In this document: positions 10,941 through 25,817 of the stretch, in pieces
Layout of the letters: each line of letters begins with the position of its first letter
Numbering within the stretch: position 1 is the stretch's first letter
From: a virus
Length of the DNA stretch: 35,240 nucleotides
Virus genome (UHGV): UHGV-0174372
Reading direction: 5' to 3' (one strand)
Notes under the pieces: model-generated
Database searches by the model: none
Told to the model about the DNA's origin: nothing
The model's input: the letters and a program-made list of their open reading frames with translations, nothing else
Position numbers and translations under genes: made by a program

Positions 10941-10950
10941 ATTAAAATAA

Positions 10951-10978
10951 TTTTCAGATATATATTACCTAGGTGAGA
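10951..10978 (+). promoter_or_regulatory. candidate phage early promoter (TATATTAC core), copy 1
   Basis: ttttcagatatatattacctaggtgaga; a 27-nt tract identical to 19206-19232, placed just after a terminator and about 50 nt upstream of the next ATG. Confidence 0.45.
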
Positions 10979-11028
10979 ATACTGTGTAATCTCTTTACGA
11001 CTTGTTTATTACGTTTAGGAGAAATATC

Positions 11029-18242: not shown

Positions 18243-19043
18243 ATGAGTAATCTACTTACTTTCAGAATGTCTGGCCAAACGTTAATCCAAATCGACAAGT
18301 TCGAAGAAGAGAATTTTTCGAAACCGTCGAAGTTGTTAGAACGTTGCCTTAATGTTATTCCTGGTGGTGAACAACGCCAGTTGGATTACATCATGGCGTC
18401 CAGTGCTGACAAAACGATTTCTGTTATTTATACCGTAGACGGTGTACAGAATTGTCGCTTATTACCAATCGAAGAAAAAGGGACGTTAGGTCATTTGTTG
18501 TTCCTGCACGCGATCACAACTGCCGTGGTGTCTGGTGCTTTAGAAGCGCAATACGGCTTTGCTTATTGTTACTTCTATGCTCAGAAATTAGCTGCAGCGG
18601 TTATTCCAGGGCAACAAGAAACCTATCCTCAGTATATTGAACGTATTCTACCCTCACACTTTAGTGAGTCGGAAGACTATGACTTCAATGCGTTTCGTTT
18701 TACCGTAGTGGGTGAAGCCCGCGATCCTGAATATACCACGGCGGTGCGTGCGGTGGTGCGCTATTCTGTTATTTCTACAGACAGTGGCACATCAAATAAC
18801 TTTAATGAAGTGTACCCGGTCTTGCAGTTAGGTCCTTATGTGACCTTCAACAGCTATGTACCTTTCAGTTGCCAGCTTGTGGGTCCGCAGGATAACGATT
18901 CTATTCTCCCTGTTGCGGAAGAAAAGTCATTGTTTATTCGCGAATCCGTAGAGGCTATTAGCGATAAGCGCTTTATGATTTCTTCGAAGACGGGCATTAG
19001 CGATCCTGAAATCGCTGTAATGGATAAGATGCAAGGTCTGTAA
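18243..19043 (+). CDS. hypothetical phage protein (266 aa)
   Basis: ATG 18243 with aaagga at about 7-nt spacing (the track start at 18237 is a TTG). Confidence 0.75.
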   Translation: MSNLLTFRMSGQTLIQIDKFEEENFSKPSKLLERCLNVIPGGEQRQLDYIMASSADKTISVIYTVDGVQNCRLLPIEEKGTLGHLLFLHAITTAVVSGALEAQYGFAYCYFYAQKLAAAVIPGQQETYPQYIERILPSHFSESEDYDFNAFRFTVVGEARDPEYTTAVRAVVRYSVISTDSGTSNNFNEVYPVLQLGPYVTFNSYVPFSCQLVGPQDNDSILPVAEEKSLFIRESVEAISDKRFMISSKTGISDPEIAVMDKMQGL

Positions 19044-19049
19044 AAACTT

Positions 19050-19090
19050 CCCGTTACCTCTGTGGGTAACGGGAATACCTTTTATTTATC
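19050..19090 (+). terminator. probable intrinsic terminator
   Basis: 9-bp stem cccgttacc/ggtaacggg followed by T-rich aataccttttatttat. Confidence 0.55.
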
Positions 19091-19205
19091 CCTAAACGCC
19101 ACACAGAAGTCATTTCTCCATTAAGACGACTAATTACCCTTCAAAAAGAAAATTGCGTCAGAATGCGTTTTAGAGCGTTCTAGAGGGTATATGGATTCAA
19201 AAAGA

Positions 19206-19232
19206 TTTCAGATATATATTACCTAGGTGAGA
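19206..19232 (+). promoter_or_regulatory. candidate phage early promoter (TATATTAC core), copy 2
   Basis: tttcagatatatattacctaggtgaga, identical to 10952-10978; 47 nt upstream of ATG 19279. Confidence 0.45.
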
Positions 19233-19278
19233 GTTTACGTAATACTCATTTATCGAATACCTAATTAGGAGTTATATC

Positions 19279-19392
19279 ATGATTTCTGTAAAACACAAAA
19301 AAGCTATCTTCGCTGTTGTTATCGCTGTTGTTCTGGGTTGCCTGTACCTGGATATCGACAAAGGCTACGACACTTGCATCGACAACGGTAAT
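19279..19392 (+). CDS. small membrane peptide (37 aa), not in ORF track
   Basis: aggag lies 7 nt upstream of ATG 19279. Hand translation gives MISVKHKKAIFAVVIAVVLGCLYLDIDKGYDTCIRQR: a basic N-terminus then a 16-residue hydrophobic helix. Flanked by the promoter-like element and a terminator. Confidence 0.4.
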
Positions 19393-19430
19393 TCCGTTGC
19401 ACAGTGCACTGGTCGTGGTTAATGTATAAG

Positions 19431-19460
19431 GCACCTTCGGGTGCCCTTAATTTTTTTATT
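19431..19460 (+). terminator. intrinsic terminator
   Basis: Stem ggcacc/ggtgcc with a tight loop, followed by cttaatttttttatt. Confidence 0.6.
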
Positions 19461-19476
19461 AATTGGAGCATAAAAG

Positions 19477-20292
19477 ATGATTACTATTAAAGATTATTTT
19501 CCGCGTGGGCTGAGCAATGAAAACTTCGTTCCAACTGAAGACATTGCCATCGTTGCAGAGTCTAACGATAAGTCTTTTAAACTCTACTTGAGTACGGCAG
19601 CAGGAAAATCCACTCTTATTCTTCGCGAACCTGAAGTGATAAGCATCTGCTCGTTTGGGGGCGGTGTAGAAGGAACGATTAATTGGTTGAAATCCAGAAT
19701 GCATCGTTTACTTATCGTGAACACCGATCCTACGATTCGATTACAGCAATTGAAATCGTTGAATGAAGTTATCGTCGGATTATTGGAACACGAAACGTTC
19801 GGTAATGCTGAGATTGCGGAAGCGATTAAATCTGTAGAACTAATCGAGTGGAGTGATATCGAATACGAACGTGCTGCGTTATTCGCAATGCATGGTGACG
19901 ATAATCCCGTTGTGTTTGCACAAACGTTGGATAATGTTACGGTAACGGCGCGCGTATTGTTTGGTTTACAGCGTGTTGAGTTTGAACTGAAACACGTTTA
20001 TGTAAGTAATACTCCAGAGATGGTGGAAACGTTGACTCGTGCGTTCGCTTACCCATTAGACGGAGAATGGGAACAGCAGATTAATGAAGCGTTAGGCGCA
20101 ATGCTGTTCTTAGCAGGCACACTAAGGAAAGAAGAGAAATTAGAAGGTCGTGTTTATCCAGAATACGATTTTGTTTGTGAAGAATGTGGAACACAGTACC
20201 AAATACGTGTTCCTTTAACCGGCCTGACAATCCCGAGAGCCAACGTGGAATGTAAGGAATGTGGCCATGTTCAATACGTAGCGACTAAATAA
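19477..20292 (+). CDS. hypothetical protein (271 aa) with C-terminal CxxC...CxxC zinc-ribbon-like motif
   Basis: ATG 19477 with GGAG at 8-nt spacing; the C-terminus reads ...FVCEECGTQYQIRVPLTGLTIPRANVECKECGHVQYVATK. Confidence 0.8.
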   Translation: MITIKDYFPRGLSNENFVPTEDIAIVAESNDKSFKLYLSTAAGKSTLILREPEVISICSFGGGVEGTINWLKSRMHRLLIVNTDPTIRLQQLKSLNEVIVGLLEHETFGNAEIAEAIKSVELIEWSDIEYERAALFAMHGDDNPVVFAQTLDNVTVTARVLFGLQRVEFELKHVYVSNTPEMVETLTRAFAYPLDGEWEQQINEALGAMLFLAGTLRKEEKLEGRVYPEYDFVCEECGTQYQIRVPLTGLTIPRANVECKECGHVQYVATK

Positions 20293-20298
20293 AAGCAA

Positions 20299-20340
20299 CC
20301 CCTAATCCTTTTCGGGATTAGGGGTACACTTTATTTATTT
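20299..20340 (+). terminator. intrinsic terminator
   Basis: 10-bp stem cccctaatcc/gggattagggg with ttttc loop, followed by tacactttatttattttcg. Confidence 0.7.
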
Positions 20341-20403
20341 TCGCAAATTCAACAACTTGGATTAAATAAAAGGCTTAAAGCCTCTAACAATCTTCGAGTA
20401 CAG

Positions 20404-20433
20404 ATCTTCACCGAAAGGAGAAGTAACTACTAA
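20404..20433 (+). pseudogene. truncated remnant of a small-ORF paralog (3' end only, no start codon)
   Basis: cag atc ttc acc gaa agg aga agt aac tac taa is about 80% identical to the 3' end of the small ORF at 20590-20763 (..QIFTEKRSEHY*); the same frame is open back to 20293 but holds no ATG, GTG or TTG. Confidence 0.3.
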
Positions 20434-20469
20434 ATAAAATAAAGGGGTGTGACAGCACCCCTTATCAAA

Positions 20470-20556
20470 GCTTTAACTTTTCGAAAAGAGAAGTTAAAGC
20501 AGGGTACGCTGGTGCTACAGCGTACCCTTTACAACACCACTACGTTTCCGTAGTGG
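20470..20556 (+). other. cluster of three consecutive perfect hairpins (candidate structured RNA or regulatory element)
   Basis: gctttaactt/aagttaaagc (10 bp), agggtacgctg/cagcgtaccct (11 bp) and ccactacg/cgtagtgg (8 bp) back to back, ending about 30 nt before ATG 20590. Confidence 0.35.
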
Positions 20557-20589
20557 ATTTCTTTAATCACCCTACAAAGAGGGCTTACC

Positions 20590-20763
20590 ATGAACAATGG
20601 TTACTACTTTACCGACAAAATGCTTGCAGAACAGAGTGCAGCAAAGACCAATTTACAGCAACGTATCTACAAGTATAGTCAGCTCGGCATGGATAAACGG
20701 TTAAAACCGTCTACCAACCGTTTCACGCAGATATTCACTGAAAAGAGGAGTGAACACTACTAA
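20590..20763 (+). CDS. small hypothetical protein (57 aa), ORF-a; not in ORF track
   Basis: ATG 20590 with aagaggg about 6 nt upstream. Translation MNNGYYFTDKMLAEQSAAKTNLQQRIYKYSQLGMDKRLKPSTNRFTQIFTEKRSEHY shares the pattern QQRIYKYSQLG / NQRMDEYVRLG with the next small ORF. Confidence 0.45.
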   Translation: MNNGYYFTDKMLAEQSAAKTNLQQRIYKYSQLGMDKRLKPSTNRFTQIFTEKRSEHY

Positions 20764-20843
20764 CAAATAAAGGAGAGGCGTGTCAGCGCCTCTCCTCCTC
20801 GTACAGTAACCTGCCGAGATGGTGGTCGTAGGTATAATAAAAA

Positions 20844-20958
20844 AGGGGGTGGTGAAGCACCCCTTTTCATAGCTTTAACTTTTCCAAAGAGAAGTTAAAG
20901 CAGTAGAGACTGGCGAAACAGTCTCTACTGTACGGTGTCAACACATAAAGTTGTTGAC
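20844..20958 (+). other. second hairpin cluster (variant copy of 20443-20556)
   Basis: ggggtg/cacccc hairpin with T-run, then gctttaactt/aagttaaagc, gtagagactg/cagtctctac (10 bp) and gtcaaca/tgttgac (7 bp), all before ATG 20990. Confidence 0.35.
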
Positions 20959-20989
20959 GTTTTTTACAACATTACGAAAGGTAATGAAA

Positions 20990-21151
20990 ATGAACGATTA
21001 TCAAATACAGCTGTTCAATACCGCGATGCGAAATCGTGAAAAACAAATTCAGTTTAACCAACGCATGGACGAATATGTTCGTCTCGGCCTCGTTGCGGCA
21101 CCGAAAACGGTTAACAACCACAATATTCACCAACCACCTGTAAGGAGGTAA
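20990..21151 (+). CDS. small hypothetical protein (53 aa), ORF-b, diverged paralog of ORF-a
   Basis: ATG 20990 with gaaagg at 8-nt spacing (the track start at 20951 is a TTG). Translation MNDYQIQLFNTAMRNREKQIQFNQRMDEYVRLGLVAAPKTVNNHNIHQPPVRR. Confidence 0.45.
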   Translation: MNDYQIQLFNTAMRNREKQIQFNQRMDEYVRLGLVAAPKTVNNHNIHQPPVRR

Positions 21152-21291
21152 GTTACTAACTAATAAAGGGGGTGTCGCCACACCCCCTACTTAGTTCAGT
21201 AGTTATCTTCCGTTCATAATTAATAAGCCTTCTGTTTTTTTGCTTTTCGGGACGCATAAGGGGTCGTAGGGGGAGCCGAAGCTCCCCAGAC

Positions 21292-22854
21292 TCAAAAGAG
21301 TTCGTCACCCATACCGCCTGTAAAGACGTTAATCGACGATGCAGTCACTGTTTCTTCTTTATCACAATCCCATGGCAAAATGCCAACATCACGGAAAGGT
21401 ATTACAGTATAATGATAAGCTTCTTTGGTATCGATAATGGTACGGTGTTTACCGCGTTGTACTTCTAAATAGCTGTGACCGTTGACGACACGTTTGTTAA
21501 AATACATCTCACCGTCAGCTTCGTTGTCTAAGCTAGAGCAGTTGTCGTAAAGACCACGACCAGGTAAGCTCTTACAGAAACTTGCTGGGTCGAGTGCTTT
21601 TAATTTTTTGCCTTCTGGTGAGATTTGGTGTGGTGCTAATAGGAAACCACGATTACGTACCACTTGGATGTTTCGCGCGATACGATAAATTTCTTTAATG
21701 TCACTACCCGCAATACCGTTACCGTGCCCTGCTTTGCTGATAGTACCGAAATAGTCTCCGCGTATTCCAGCTACATGATAACCTCGACGTTTTAAATCTA
21801 AAATCAAATCATTCAAATAGTGAATTTTAAAATCGGAGTTTGTGTGTTTTTGGAAAATATACTCCCAACCGTTTGCCCGCATTTTACTACAGAGGTAATC
21901 TGACATTTGTGCATTGTGTAGCGCTTTTTCTTCGTCAGTTGCCGTTTCAGGTGCAACCATTACCGGAGCTGTACCTTCAAAGTGTCCGTAAAGTGCTTGA
22001 TACGCGTAAGCCAAGTTAACATCTAATTCGTTTTCTAAACTTAAATCCAGAATAACCGGTTGTAAGTCACCTTTAACATTCGCCATCACCTTTTCTGGGG
22101 TGTTGAATACAGGAATGCTAATAGAGAGCAATAAACTGAATAATGACTTACAGTTAAAGGGTAGTGCAGGCATTAGCCAGAGTTCTTCGGTGATCCCTTT
22201 GTTACAGCCAAGCATTTGGTTAATTGCTTTCCACCCCGTACGCAACCCGTTCCCTGCCGCTTTCTTACTGATAGAGTCGAATACATGTACGAAGGGTGCT
22301 TTATTGTCAGTAATCAATTCCCCTACCAGAGAAGGAATCTTATTATGAGAGCGTTCACTGAACGTGGATAAGGTATCCTTAAGGTCGTTGAGCGCCGTTT
22401 GTAAATCAACACGCGTTTCAGTGCCGTTCAGTGCGCCTAACGTACGACCCAATTTTTGTTTCAGTTGTACGCCTTGAATAGCTTGACGTAACTGAAAGTA
22501 GTATTGTGCTACTTGGCGATTAAGATGCTCGATGCGTGCTTCTGGTTCTTCTGGAATATCATCTTCCAGGAATTTGGTAATCGTATCGTATAGAGGACGT
22601 ATTTGCGTAGTGGCCAGTTTCAAACGTTTCATGACGTTTGTGTGGTCGTAAGGCATACCGCCGTCTATGATGGATGTGATGATATCCTTGATTTCGACGA
22701 GGGCGGCACGTTCGTCACCTTCTTCTGCGTAATCAGGAAGCTTAGCCTCTAACAGCACTTTTCTTATGATGTCGTGGTCCTTTTCAGGATCGGTCAGAAG
22801 ACTTTCAGCGTATAATGTGGCTAAGGCGGTTATCAACATCATTTTGTTATTCAT
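21292..22854 (-). CDS. hypothetical phage protein (520 aa)
   Basis: Long ORF with aagga 8 nt upstream of the ATG on the minus strand; a GC hairpin (21269-21287) abuts the stop; Gly-rich segment GDYFGTISKAGHGNGIAGSD. No motif recognised. Confidence 0.8.
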   Translation of the reverse strand: MNNKMMLITALATLYAESLLTDPEKDHDIIRKVLLEAKLPDYAEEGDERAALVEIKDIITSIIDGGMPYDHTNVMKRLKLATTQIRPLYDTITKFLEDDIPEEPEARIEHLNRQVAQYYFQLRQAIQGVQLKQKLGRTLGALNGTETRVDLQTALNDLKDTLSTFSERSHNKIPSLVGELITDNKAPFVHVFDSISKKAAGNGLRTGWKAINQMLGCNKGITEELWLMPALPFNCKSLFSLLLSISIPVFNTPEKVMANVKGDLQPVILDLSLENELDVNLAYAYQALYGHFEGTAPVMVAPETATDEEKALHNAQMSDYLCSKMRANGWEYIFQKHTNSDFKIHYLNDLILDLKRRGYHVAGIRGDYFGTISKAGHGNGIAGSDIKEIYRIARNIQVVRNRGFLLAPHQISPEGKKLKALDPASFCKSLPGRGLYDNCSSLDNEADGEMYFNKRVVNGHSYLEVQRGKHRTIIDTKEAYHYTVIPFRDVGILPWDCDKEETVTASSINVFTGGMGDELF

Positions 22855-22867
22855 GGAGCATCCTTAA

Positions 22868-23392
22868 ATGCAAATTCGTTTTAGTCCACCGTGGGAAGTT
22901 CAACCTAACATAGATAAAGGCGCTGCCGTTAAAAGTATAGAATTGCTCCAGGCAGGGTTCTTTAACTGGTTATATGACTGTCCGAATGGTTTCAGTTCTA
23001 TTATCTTACCTGAAGTAAGTCGTTCTGCTATTTATAAAGCACTGATGGCTCCGCCTGTGCTTCCAGGTAAATATTATGATCAGGTGTTACGTCTGGTCGA
23101 ATCAGGCGAAAAGGTTTCCCTTGACGATTTATATGGGGAAACAATTCCTTGTCGCGTACGTTGGGTGTTTACTCAACGTGGTGATACGATTGTGGCGTCA
23201 TTTGCAGAAGCGAAGTCCGGTTCGGGTTTTTCTTCGGGTGAAGACCACGCTGCGAAAAAGATGTTCTGCGCAGAACTTTTTAAATATATGCGTACCAAGA
23301 CTCGCGTCGTGGATGACTGCTTCAGTACCTCAACGCAGTTTGCCGCTAACGAAGTGCTGACGCAATTATACGCATGTCATTTATCTCATTAA
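22868..23392 (+). CDS. hypothetical phage protein (174 aa)
   Basis: ATG 22868 with GGAG 9 nt upstream; divergent from the 520-aa gene across a 13-bp spacer. Confidence 0.7.
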   Translation: MQIRFSPPWEVQPNIDKGAAVKSIELLQAGFFNWLYDCPNGFSSIILPEVSRSAIYKALMAPPVLPGKYYDQVLRLVESGEKVSLDDLYGETIPCRVRWVFTQRGDTIVASFAEAKSGSGFSSGEDHAAKKMFCAELFKYMRTKTRVVDDCFSTSTQFAANEVLTQLYACHLSH

Positions 23393-25752: not shown

Positions 25753-25817
25753 TTTCTATTATTTTTTGGATAGATATTATTAAAGGGAGACGGCCAGTTG
25801 GTTTTAAAGGAGTATGT

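Follow-up and report, generated by a model that had tools for sequence, protein, structure and literature searches.

Small paralogous genes and reiterated hairpin modules in the gap separating the gp70-like and helicase genes of an SPN3US-related jumbo phage: a probable accessory-gene slot

What fills a kilobase of phage DNA that contains no long open reading frame (ORF) and yet separates two well-defined genes? The viral sequence UHGV-0174372, analyzed here as a stretch of 35,240 nt (the window), raises this question at positions 20293-21291, where a 271-aa gene on the + strand ends in front of a convergent gene for a DnaB-like helicase (Table 1). A first-pass annotation, made from the letters alone, described this gap as a tandem array of diverged paralogous small ORFs, each ending in a reiterated module of a ctactaa tail, the string aataaagg and a GC hairpin, and suggested that the conserved unit is an RNA or DNA element as much as a protein tail. 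The source of the window is an SPN3US-related (phiKZ-related) jumbo phage of E. coli/Shigella. Over its helicase end the locus shares about 77% DNA identity with SPN3US-like (Seoulvirus) jumbo phages from Salmonella, Escherichia, Erwinia and Proteus, and the remainder of the locus query gave no match in the phage collection. We propose, with a probability of about 0.72, that the gap is a hyperplastic accessory-gene slot of an SPN3US-like jumbo phage, built from cassettes. Each cassette would consist of one small protein-coding gene (48-61 aa) flanked by a reiterated non-coding module of hairpins.

Both small ORFs, ORF-a (57 aa) and ORF-b (53 aa), were recovered with the positions and lengths originally given to them, and no long ORF was found in the gap; ORFs on the - strand of the array are merely short antisense ORFs without conservation. 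Compared directly, the two proteins produce a weak BLASTP match (E 0.024, 5/11 identities). Profiles that include their orthologues align with an hhalign probability of 79% (E 1.5e-5, 38 columns), and the claimed tandem array of diverged paralogs is supported. The third member is the start-less remnant that had been placed at 20404-20433. It is real, but it is longer than supposed and represents a 5'-truncated D-type gene, matched at E 1.2e-7 by a family profile hidden Markov model (HMM) from which its own sequence was left out. Full-length versions of 55-56 aa are present in relatives (L006 ORF2, P0068; L and P numbers denote related sequences), and the deletion junction of the remnant lies within a TTCAACA microhomology. 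A second remnant had been overlooked: a segment between the two intact genes (20799-20831) exactly matches the final 10 codons, with the stop, of the 61-aa E-type gene (L004, L032-L035). The order in the window is [ΔD][A][ΔE][B].

Comparison was extended to 17 loci whose helicase proteins are 97-100% identical to that of the window, plus an E. coli 'plasmid' (18 close relatives). Close relatives were met in IMG/VR and in ENA and Logan assemblies, and also as contigs of about 220 kb catalogued under E. coli or Shigella. Among the close relatives the gap between the flanking genes measures 540-1371 nt and holds one to four small genes, which belong to six types: A (57 aa), B (53-56 aa), C (52 aa), D (55 aa), E (61 aa) and F (51 aa). 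At least nine arrangements occur, namely B; C-B; F-B; F'-D-B; x-D-B; C-D-B; ΔA-E-B; ΔD-A-ΔE-B; and C-E-D-ΔA-B. Type B is present in every close genome, always adjoining the helicase gene, and the start codon of ORF-b is common to the relatives. Distant relatives carry two genes (SPN3US), one (pEa29, L010, L011, L013) or none (phiEaH2, L008, L012, L014-L019). The two of SPN3US are annotated as 48-aa hypothetical genes, gp71/gp72 (original numbering; RefSeq ACQ60_gp195/gp194), and Erwinia phage pEa_SNUABM_29 has one small gene in the same gap. The position is conserved, between the gp70 homologue and the DnaB-like helicase and on the strand opposite to the latter. The copy-number comparison that the annotation had proposed thus yields 0 to 4 small genes per locus, and the aligned loci show that relatives differ by gains, losses, fusions and truncations of whole cassettes.

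The pattern of variation indicates that ORF-b is under purifying selection. Nonsynonymous and synonymous differences per site in the most divergent pair of type B alleles amount to pN 0.105 and pS 0.565 (ratio 0.19). Across the first 150 nt of 11 alleles the variable sites (n=32) are distributed 7/4/21 by codon position, with synonymous changes only in codons 12-29. The pN/pS ratio of type E is 0.32, and each small gene is preceded, 7-10 nt ahead of its ATG, by a plausible ribosome-binding site. On these signs the small genes are real and constrained. A recent neutral duplication without function would leave behind such things as the two truncated remnants and the many deletions, and some members are indeed not called by PGAP. 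It is nevertheless a very improbable origin of the array, already largely excluded by present evidence: the paralogs are only about 19% identical and hence old, the family occupies the same locus across Salmonella, Escherichia and Erwinia phages with helicases 74-85% identical, and selection has been purifying.

The non-coding DNA between one stop and the next start follows a fixed order: hairpins H1, H2, H3 and H4, then the ribosome-binding site and the start codon. H1 is a GC hairpin, H2 an AT-rich palindrome of 30-31 nt (GCTTTAACTTTTC-N4-5-GAGAAGTTAAAGC), H3 a perfect hairpin of 11-12 bp and H4 a hairpin of 7-8 bp. H1 and H2 are found in 2-3 copies in the window and in up to three in relatives, and the three copies of tail, aataaagg and GC hairpin listed by the annotation are present. 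Hairpins of the form GGGGTG-N6-CACCCC occur three times in the window against 0.04 expected, all within this kilobase. The spacers fold far more strongly than their shuffled versions (z -10 and -10.8 on the + strand, -7.3 and -9.3 on the - strand). Among 16 distinct module units, 98.9% of the H3 cells are paired and 7/11 pairs have changed on both sides; H2 is paired at 13/13 positions and invariant save for one compensatory A:U to U:A swap and a fixed U·G. This covariation was not reached by any shuffle or slid register. The alignments therefore show stems that are maintained while sequences and loop orientations change, and the reiterated hairpin module, for which folding had been recommended as a check, is real and folds strongly on both strands. 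H2 occurs in no other place within the four IMG/VR genomes that carry it. A search of Rfam 15 at permissive E-values gave nothing at the gathering threshold (best ylbH, 23.4 bits against 50), and ARAGORN found no tRNA or tmRNA genes.

Table 1. Features in and around the gap, in window coordinates; regulatory assignments are predictions.
Feature	Position	Strand	Remarks
Early-type promoter consensus TCAAAAAGATTTCAGATATATATTACCTAGGTGAGA	19197-19238	+	position weight matrix score 45.8; nearest recognisable site upstream of the array
271-aa gene, SPN3US gp70 homologue	19477-20292	+	left border of the slot
T0, 12-bp GC hairpin (20298-20325), then T-tract CTTTATTTATTTTCGC	20298-20345		terminator of the 271-aa gene
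D-type small gene remnant	20348-20434	+	5'-truncated, without start codon; reads …IQQLGLNKRLKASNNLRVQIFTERRSNY*
H1 copy 1, AAGGGGTG-tgacag-CACCCCTT	20442-20463		A-tract AAATAAAATAAA before; canonical terminator (-), weak (+)
H2 copy 1, AT-rich palindrome GCTTTAACTTTTC-gaaaa-GAGAAGTTAAAGC	20470-20500	+	
H3, 11-bp perfect stem	20501-20528		adjoins H2; sequence varies between cassettes, structure kept
H4, CCACTACG-tttc-CGTAGTGG	20537-20556	+	ORF-a leader
ORF-a, A-type small gene, 57 aa	20590-20763	+	ribosome-binding site AGAGGG 7 nt upstream
Hairpin after ORF-a, GGAGAGGCG-tgtca-GCGCCTCTCC	20769-20798		CAAATAAA before; terminator-like on - strand only
E-type small gene 3'-end remnant	20799-20831	+	…SYSNLPRWWS*
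H1 copy 2, GGGGGTG-gtgaag-CACCCC	20844-20866		A-tract and T-tract flanks; looks bidirectional
H2 copy 2, GCTTTAACTTTTC-caaa-GAGAAGTTAAAGC	20872-20901	+	
H3 (20901-20930) and H4 (20937-20958)	20901-20958		ORF-b leader
ORF-b, B-type small gene, 53 aa	20990-21151	+	in 18/18 close relatives, always last gene of the array
Displaced ancestral ORF-b tail, gttactaactaataaa	21152-21166	+	old tac-taa at 21154-21159, by comparison with B alleles of L006, L028 and others
Last hairpin, AGGGGGTGT-cgcc-ACACCCCCT	21167-21188		common to convergent ORF-b and helicase; terminator-like (-)
Conserved non-coding element	21235-21291	-	directly 3' of helicase stop; UUCG-loop hairpin, then TTATGCGTCC, then A-run
DnaB-like replicative helicase gene	21292-22854	-	PF20307; right border of the slot

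At seven of the array hairpins, near-identical genomes carry alleles with the loop exactly reverse-complemented, and this is the dominant polymorphism of these hairpins. Such flips affect T0 (TTTTCG/CGAAAA), H1 (TGACAG/CTGTCA) and H3 (GTGCTA/TAGCAC), with further pairs TTGTAG/CTACAA, ACCGA/TCGGT and CGCTAC/GTAGCG; the T0 loop of the window is inverted relative to 16/16 relatives. Minute inversions of hairpin loops at inverted repeats have been described for chloroplast non-coding DNA. There, as in the array, the loop is exactly reverse-complemented between perfect inverted-repeat arms; here they are met in a phage genome, at seven hairpins within 1 kb and among near-identical genomes. Flips of this kind suggest that perfect palindromes are altered at the DNA level, by template switching or by recombination of one arm with the other. 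They also show that the loop sequence is immaterial and that the palindromes are recombinogenic, which fits a role as junctions in cassette rearrangement. Rearrangement junctions themselves fall either within the repeated non-coding modules, as with the hybrid H3 stem of L006, or within 5-8-nt microhomologies. Besides the TTCAACA of the window ΔD, the microhomology junctions include AGGAGAA in L020, between a real ribosome-binding site and a gene tail, AGTAAC in P0019, which produced a fusion of C and E tails, and TCG at the window ΔE.

The GC hairpins resemble transcription terminators. In SPN3US the string TTTATTTT(C) recurs on both strands right after GC-rich tetraloop hairpins at gene ends, so TTTATTTT is best read as the T-tract of the intrinsic-type terminators of this phage group. 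The aataaagg with its GC hairpin is then a predicted terminator read on the opposite strand, and the 3'-end module, a stop codon followed by an A-tract and a GC hairpin, is what the standard terminator of this phage group looks like from the other strand and forms part of the larger repeated module. The terminator postulated ahead of the locus corresponds to T0, which has an A-tract upstream and a T-tract matching the SPN3US terminators, and is terminator-like on both strands. The early-promoter-like element noted after this hairpin has no match to the early consensus and matches the terminator T-tract instead. The AT-rich run after T0 was also rejected as a promoter on the evidence of SPN3US, where TTTATTTTC follows hairpins at gene ends and is a terminator T-tract. 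A consensus scan of 19000-23000 returned 14 terminator-like sites where 3.4 were expected; within the gap, eight lie on the - strand and two on the + strand. Copies that look bidirectional, with both an A-tract and a T-tract, are the second H1 of the window and the H1 that follows E, F and D genes in relatives. The modules share with bidirectional intrinsic terminators the perfect GC-rich stem, the A-tract upstream, the T-tract downstream and the location between convergent genes. They differ in that several have a one-sided T-tract and in their density: 8-10 are packed in 1 kb, against about eight hairpins of comparable strength in the remaining 34 kb of the window.

This excess on one strand could be taken to mean that the region is a stack of - strand terminators, that is, a long 3' region of the helicase gene insulating the early operon, with the small genes as hitch-hikers. 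We consider this unlikely. It agrees with 8/10 of the terminator-like sites facing the helicase, with the match of the A-tract and hairpin modules to the canonical T-tract on the - strand, and with phiEaH2 and L008, which manage with a single bidirectional hairpin. The same two phages also tell against it, because if one hairpin is enough in relatives, eight exceed the need. Hairpin number moreover tracks gene number, and ORF-b is kept in 18/18 close genomes under purifying selection.

If the hairpins stop transcription, from where are the small genes transcribed? A whole-genome k-mer survey of SPN3US uncovered an over-represented AT-rich motif, TCnAAnAAnTTTCAG-ATAGATATTATCT-AnGTGAGA (TCnAAnAAnTTTCAGATAGATATTATCTAnGTGAGA), with 25 sites, of which 22 are on the + strand; the sites are mostly co-oriented with downstream genes (L040-L044). 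The experimentally defined early promoter of phage AR9, AAATATATATTAT-N6-G, is recognized by the virion RNA polymerase (PMC5312081); its resemblance to TCnAAnAAnTTTCAGATAGATATTATCTAnGTGAGA makes the latter the probable early promoter consensus of SPN3US-like phages, in agreement also with how early promoters of phiKZ-related phages are generally described. A position weight matrix made from the 25 sites detected + strand sites in the window at 10943-10984, 19197-19238 and 25755-25796, and no site scoring >=8 in the gap. The nearest one lies 1.1 kb upstream and is followed by a 47-aa gene, the gp70-like gene and then the array, which suggests that the array is the distal part of an early-type transcription unit, set off from the rest by a strong terminator-like hairpin. 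Scanning for sigma-70 promoters found no site in any inter-ORF module and six sites in total, below the shuffled mean of 8.2; the two + strand sites of the array lie inside ORF-a or overlap the start of ORF-b. phiKZ-like phages do not rely on host RNA polymerase, and their middle and late promoters have almost no consensus (PMC7598289).

That scarcity of consensus leaves space for a different reading, in which the cassettes are autonomous transcription units. H2, or its T-rich left arm (present also after T0), would be a promoter of a phage RNA polymerase, H3/H4 would be stem-loops stabilizing the 5' untranslated region and H1 would be the terminator. We regard this as a serious competitor, albeit one with somewhat less than an even chance. 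H2 is the sole part of the module whose sequence stays invariant while the neighbouring hairpins change, and strong terminator-like hairpins stand between the genes. The SPN3US group has a corresponding plan of upstream terminator, AT palindrome, GC hairpin and small gene, seen in each lineage that carries such a gene (SPN3US, pEa29, L010, L011, L013). The palindrome arms differ by lineage and remain complementary (TTTATTTTC/GAAAATAAA, TTATTTTTC/GAAAAATAA, TTTATTTTTTC/GAAAAAATAAA), and both palindrome and downstream GC hairpin are missing where the small genes are missing (phiEaH2, L008). On the other hand, H2 is found nowhere else in these genomes and matches neither the early consensus nor sigma-70, the first cassette of arrays that begin with C or F retains the left arm only, and this arm is indistinguishable from an ordinary terminator T-tract. 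As a genome-wide promoter, H2 or the AT-rich run after T0 was rejected, TTTATTTTCG being at chance frequency in the window and H2 confined to the array.

A further possibility, raised by the first-pass annotation, is that the selected unit is the RNA or DNA element itself (a functional non-coding RNA, an antisense or a cis-regulatory device) and that the ORFs are secondary. The argument had been built on the persistence of the ctactaa tail behind ORF-b, where the reading frame has shifted. Inspection of the relatives revealed that ctactaa is the coding end Tyr-stop (tac taa). It closes type A (…EHY*), type B of relatives (…TGY* or …NGY*) and the D remnant of the window (…SNY*). The frame-shift remark was correct: ORF-b of relatives ends ...VRRTGY* or ...RRNGY* with tac-taa, and in the lineage of the window one substitution and a 1-nt deletion created a premature taa 6-9 nt (two to three codons) upstream, with the former stop still visible at 21157-21159. 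The conclusion drawn from it fails, as a recent mutation in near-identical genomes suffices. The persistence of the displaced tail needs no functional explanation, because genomes that differ there are nearly identical elsewhere. Comparison thus identifies ctactaa as a coding Tyr-stop shared by descent, whose displaced copy need not be functional, and the family tail is conserved at the protein level (hydrophobic-hydrophobic-x-E/N-K/R-K/R). Tails of the small-gene family appear labile in general, as a non-coding B-tail lies downstream of the F-type gene in L028, a fused tail occurs in P0019 and a frameshifted one in P0054.

Taken as a whole, such an RNA or DNA element is an improbable target of selection. 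It would be in keeping with the very strong folding of the spacers on both strands, the covarying stems, the restriction of tail arginine codons to AGR (8/8 against 6.6% in long genes) and the B-tail module that persists as non-coding DNA in L028 and the window. It is contradicted by the third-position bias of variation and the pN/pS of 0.19, which are marks of protein constraint, and by the lack of any Rfam family near threshold. Loops flip freely and the H3/H4 sequences are unrelated between cassettes, so that only stems matter, as they would for terminators or stabilizers. The AGGAG tract of the tails is absent from E and F types and from pEa29, and the persistent tails occur in genomes about 97-100% identical in the flanking helicase protein.

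Several observations on the tails may be added. Arginine is encoded by AGA/AGG in 8/8 cases within the last 10 codons of the small genes, in 9/26 cases in the gene bodies and in 6.6% (30/454) in the long genes of the window. AGR-only tails give purine tracts resembling Shine-Dalgarno (SD) sequences, GAAAGGAGAAG and GTAAGGAGGT (e.g. window 20740-20751 and 21143-21148), one of which has recombined with a genuine ribosome-binding site in L020. The AGGAG tract near the stop, which recurs in different frames, was considered as a frameshift or pausing signal and rejected: in the protein alignment it coincides with the conserved basic tail (E-K/R-K/R-S), the E and F types lack it, it is degenerate in pEa29 (GGGGGT), and neither a downstream ORF nor an in-frame slippery site lies alongside. 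Imperfect outer arms extend the last hairpin to 21144-21211, the ORF-b tail GGAGGTAAGTTACTAACTAA pairing with a downstream inverted copy TTAGTTCAGTAGTTATCTTCC, and in + strand RNA this pairing would enclose the ORF-b stop region within about 27 bp of stem.

Composite modules of a comparable kind, the PeSL (promoter-early stem-loop) elements, are known from T4-type phages. In a PeSL, a stop codon lying in AT-rich DNA is followed by a terminator in the form of a polyG/polyC stem-loop, by a strong early promoter of the sigma-70 type and then by the SD sequence and start of a small ORFan (PMC2839356). PeSLs are reiterated between the ORFans of hyperplastic regions and mediate indels and the formation of mini-circles (PMC2839356; PMC4122927). 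The array likewise shows an upstream stop in AT-rich DNA, a G-run/C-run stem-loop, and then the SD sequence and start of the next small ORFan. Its GGGGTG…CACCCC hairpins begin 8-19 nt past each stop, after A-tracts, and their fold is borne out in silico. Near-identical copies are reiterated in a hyperplastic region, and indels or replacements between close relatives are bounded by cassettes (nine arrangements with helicases 97-100% identical). Unlike PeSL, the array has no sigma-70-type -35/-10 promoter, and its module is a triplet or quadruplet of hairpins with an invariant AT palindrome. Its genes are paralogs of one family, whereas PeSL separates unrelated ORFans, and it forms a single locus, whereas PeSL is present at about 50 sites per genome. 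By analogy, then, the locus functions in the manner of a PeSL region without being a PeSL, having three of the defining features and lacking the promoter. If this view is correct, the module must carry regulatory content unlike that of PeSL, because these phages use RNA polymerases of their own for transcription.

In the accessory-gene slot proposed here, the parts may act as follows. H1, with its A-tract and T-tract, would be an intrinsic-terminator-like hairpin, either bidirectional or facing the helicase. H2 would represent two facing T-tracts, that of the left hairpin on the + strand and that of the right hairpin on the - strand, and H3/H4 are perfect GC hairpins, one or two in number, within the leader of the gene that follows. 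The modules may serve as transcription stops or insulators between the early operon and the convergent helicase gene, possibly also as stabilizers of mRNA ends, and the repeated perfect palindromes would be a recombination substrate that shuffles cassettes as PeSL does. Expression of the + strand genes could come from read-through of the 19197 promoter or from an unrecognized promoter in the T-rich arm of H2, with roughly even chances. The proteins themselves may be dispensable accessory factors of fast turnover that bind a host or phage partner via a helix, although this is a guess which we would not call probable.

A number of points weigh against this proposal. Most of the hairpins resemble terminators of the - strand, whereas the genes lie on the other; a promoter belonging to any known class is not apparent inside the array, and the route of expression is thus a predicted one. 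The invariance of H2 across cassettes goes beyond what a mere pair of T and A tracts explains, which leaves room for a specific role as a promoter or binding site. Compensatory changes in the stems could stem from template-switch mutation and not from selection on RNA. Selection is well measured for ORF-b alone, types A, C, D and F showing just 1-3 differences each, and the profile of types A and D matches that of the SPN3US type with a probability of only 19%, so the link of ORF-a to the SPN3US family phrog_18219 is weak. All regulatory roles, finally, have been read from sequence.

It is also conceivable, at rather long odds, that the hairpin module serves jumbo phages that form a phage nucleus as the dedicated cis-element of a cassette system. 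H2 would then be a cassette-specific promoter or recombination site, possibly acting as a hairpin or cruciform; cassettes would be excised, inverted and exchanged between co-infecting phages; and the proteins would be diversifying inhibitors of host factors or defence. Such a system would fit the frequent loop inversions and the phage-encoded SbcCD-like palindrome nuclease. We see the locus as a clean example of cassette shuffling, with no evidence yet of a new mechanism. If the accessory-slot interpretation is true, SPN3US-like jumbo phages diversify small accessory genes as T4-type phages do, with composite stop/start modules as recombination handles. The nine architectures among near-identical genomes would constitute a natural experiment on cassette gain and loss. 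Transcription signals of these phages are poorly defined, and the locus further offers candidate terminators and candidate 5' elements, together with a clade-restricted family of proteins of about 50 aa (gp71/gp72 and relatives) in a phage for which a genetic system exists.

Profile comparisons assign all array genes, with varying certainty, to one clade-restricted family that includes gp71/gp72 of SPN3US (phrog_18219). ORF-b matches the PHROG model of phrog_18219 at E 0.075 and ORF-a does not match it; the ORF-b profile aligns to that of the SPN3US type with an hhalign probability of 81% (E 1.2e-5). A joint profile retrieves all types at E <=1e-7, but it was built from those types; in the family alignment the tails are bridged by types C and F. 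Genes gp71/gp72 share with the array genes the position between gp70 and helicase, the size, the helix motif (F/Y)xQR(V/L/M)xE, the basic C-terminus and the upstream AT palindrome with GC hairpin. They differ in an invariant KGLGG(D/E)I motif that the window types lack, and the clade of the window has diversified into six types. AlphaFold2, given the family alignment, models ORF-b as a single helix at residues 3-31 (pLDDT >90) with a disordered stretch of 20 residues at the C-terminus, and the family protein is accordingly predicted to have a long helix at its N-terminus and a basic, disordered tail behind it. The signature of the family is a hydrophobic helix stripe carrying the helix motif, a proline-containing linker and an end of the form hydrophobic-hydrophobic-x-(E/N)-(K/R)-(K/R).

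The database searches that the annotation had called for did retrieve family members, and none of the databases gave a functional hint, whether of the host-takeover or anti-defence role that the annotation had conjectured or of any other. The profile of all types collected 67 protein clusters (44-87 aa), almost all on phage-sized contigs (about 220-250 kb) and without informative names. A filter-free profile search of 1.84 billion representative proteins yielded 15 matches, all from the same clade save one repetitive eukaryote-like protein, and within the window and within SPN3US the family HMM matches the array locus only. Pfam searches of the small proteins gave sub-threshold noise, PHROGs only the unknown-function family phrog_18219, tblastn of ORF-a and ORF-b against phage genomes chance matches, and the PDB profile search a best E of 0.45 (ribosomal protein bL34). 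A literature search on the gp71/gp72 family found nothing published; the paper on SPN3US essential genes does not mention gp71/gp72 (PMC5105663).

The borders of the slot have features of their own. SPN3US gp70 is an essential, non-virion protein (PMC5105663). Its counterparts in the window and in L003-L035 fall into two allele classes with only 67-70% protein identity in phages whose helicases are 97% identical, which implies that the hypervariable zone starts upstream of the array; the C-terminal end of the gp70-like protein is a CxxC…CxxC zinc-ribbon-like motif. The conserved 47-aa ORF between the early-type promoter and this gene (19279-19422) has a hydrophobic segment and a Cys-containing C-terminal motif, with counterparts in SPN3US (gp200, RefSeq numbering) and in relatives L015/L017/L018. 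At the other border, the non-coding element behind the helicase stop combines, in this order, a GC hairpin whose loop is of the UUCG type and whose stem covaries, a near-invariant TTATG(C/T)GT, mostly then CC, and an A-run. It is also seen after the helicase stop in L003-L012 and L016, and is not a cassette part because relatives lacking small genes have it as well; within it lies TATG, which forms the core of phiKZ late promoters. A replication origin beside the helicase gene was considered and rejected, the element in question being absent from phiEaH2 and L008 and variable elsewhere, and the skew profile showing nothing specific. The E. coli 'plasmid' among the close relatives (L045; NZ_CP173450.1, 87248-92242), a circular 221.9-kb molecule of a urinary isolate, is a genome of this phage; its array is C-B, and the 52-aa C-type gene (L045 2469-2627) is unannotated in RefSeq.

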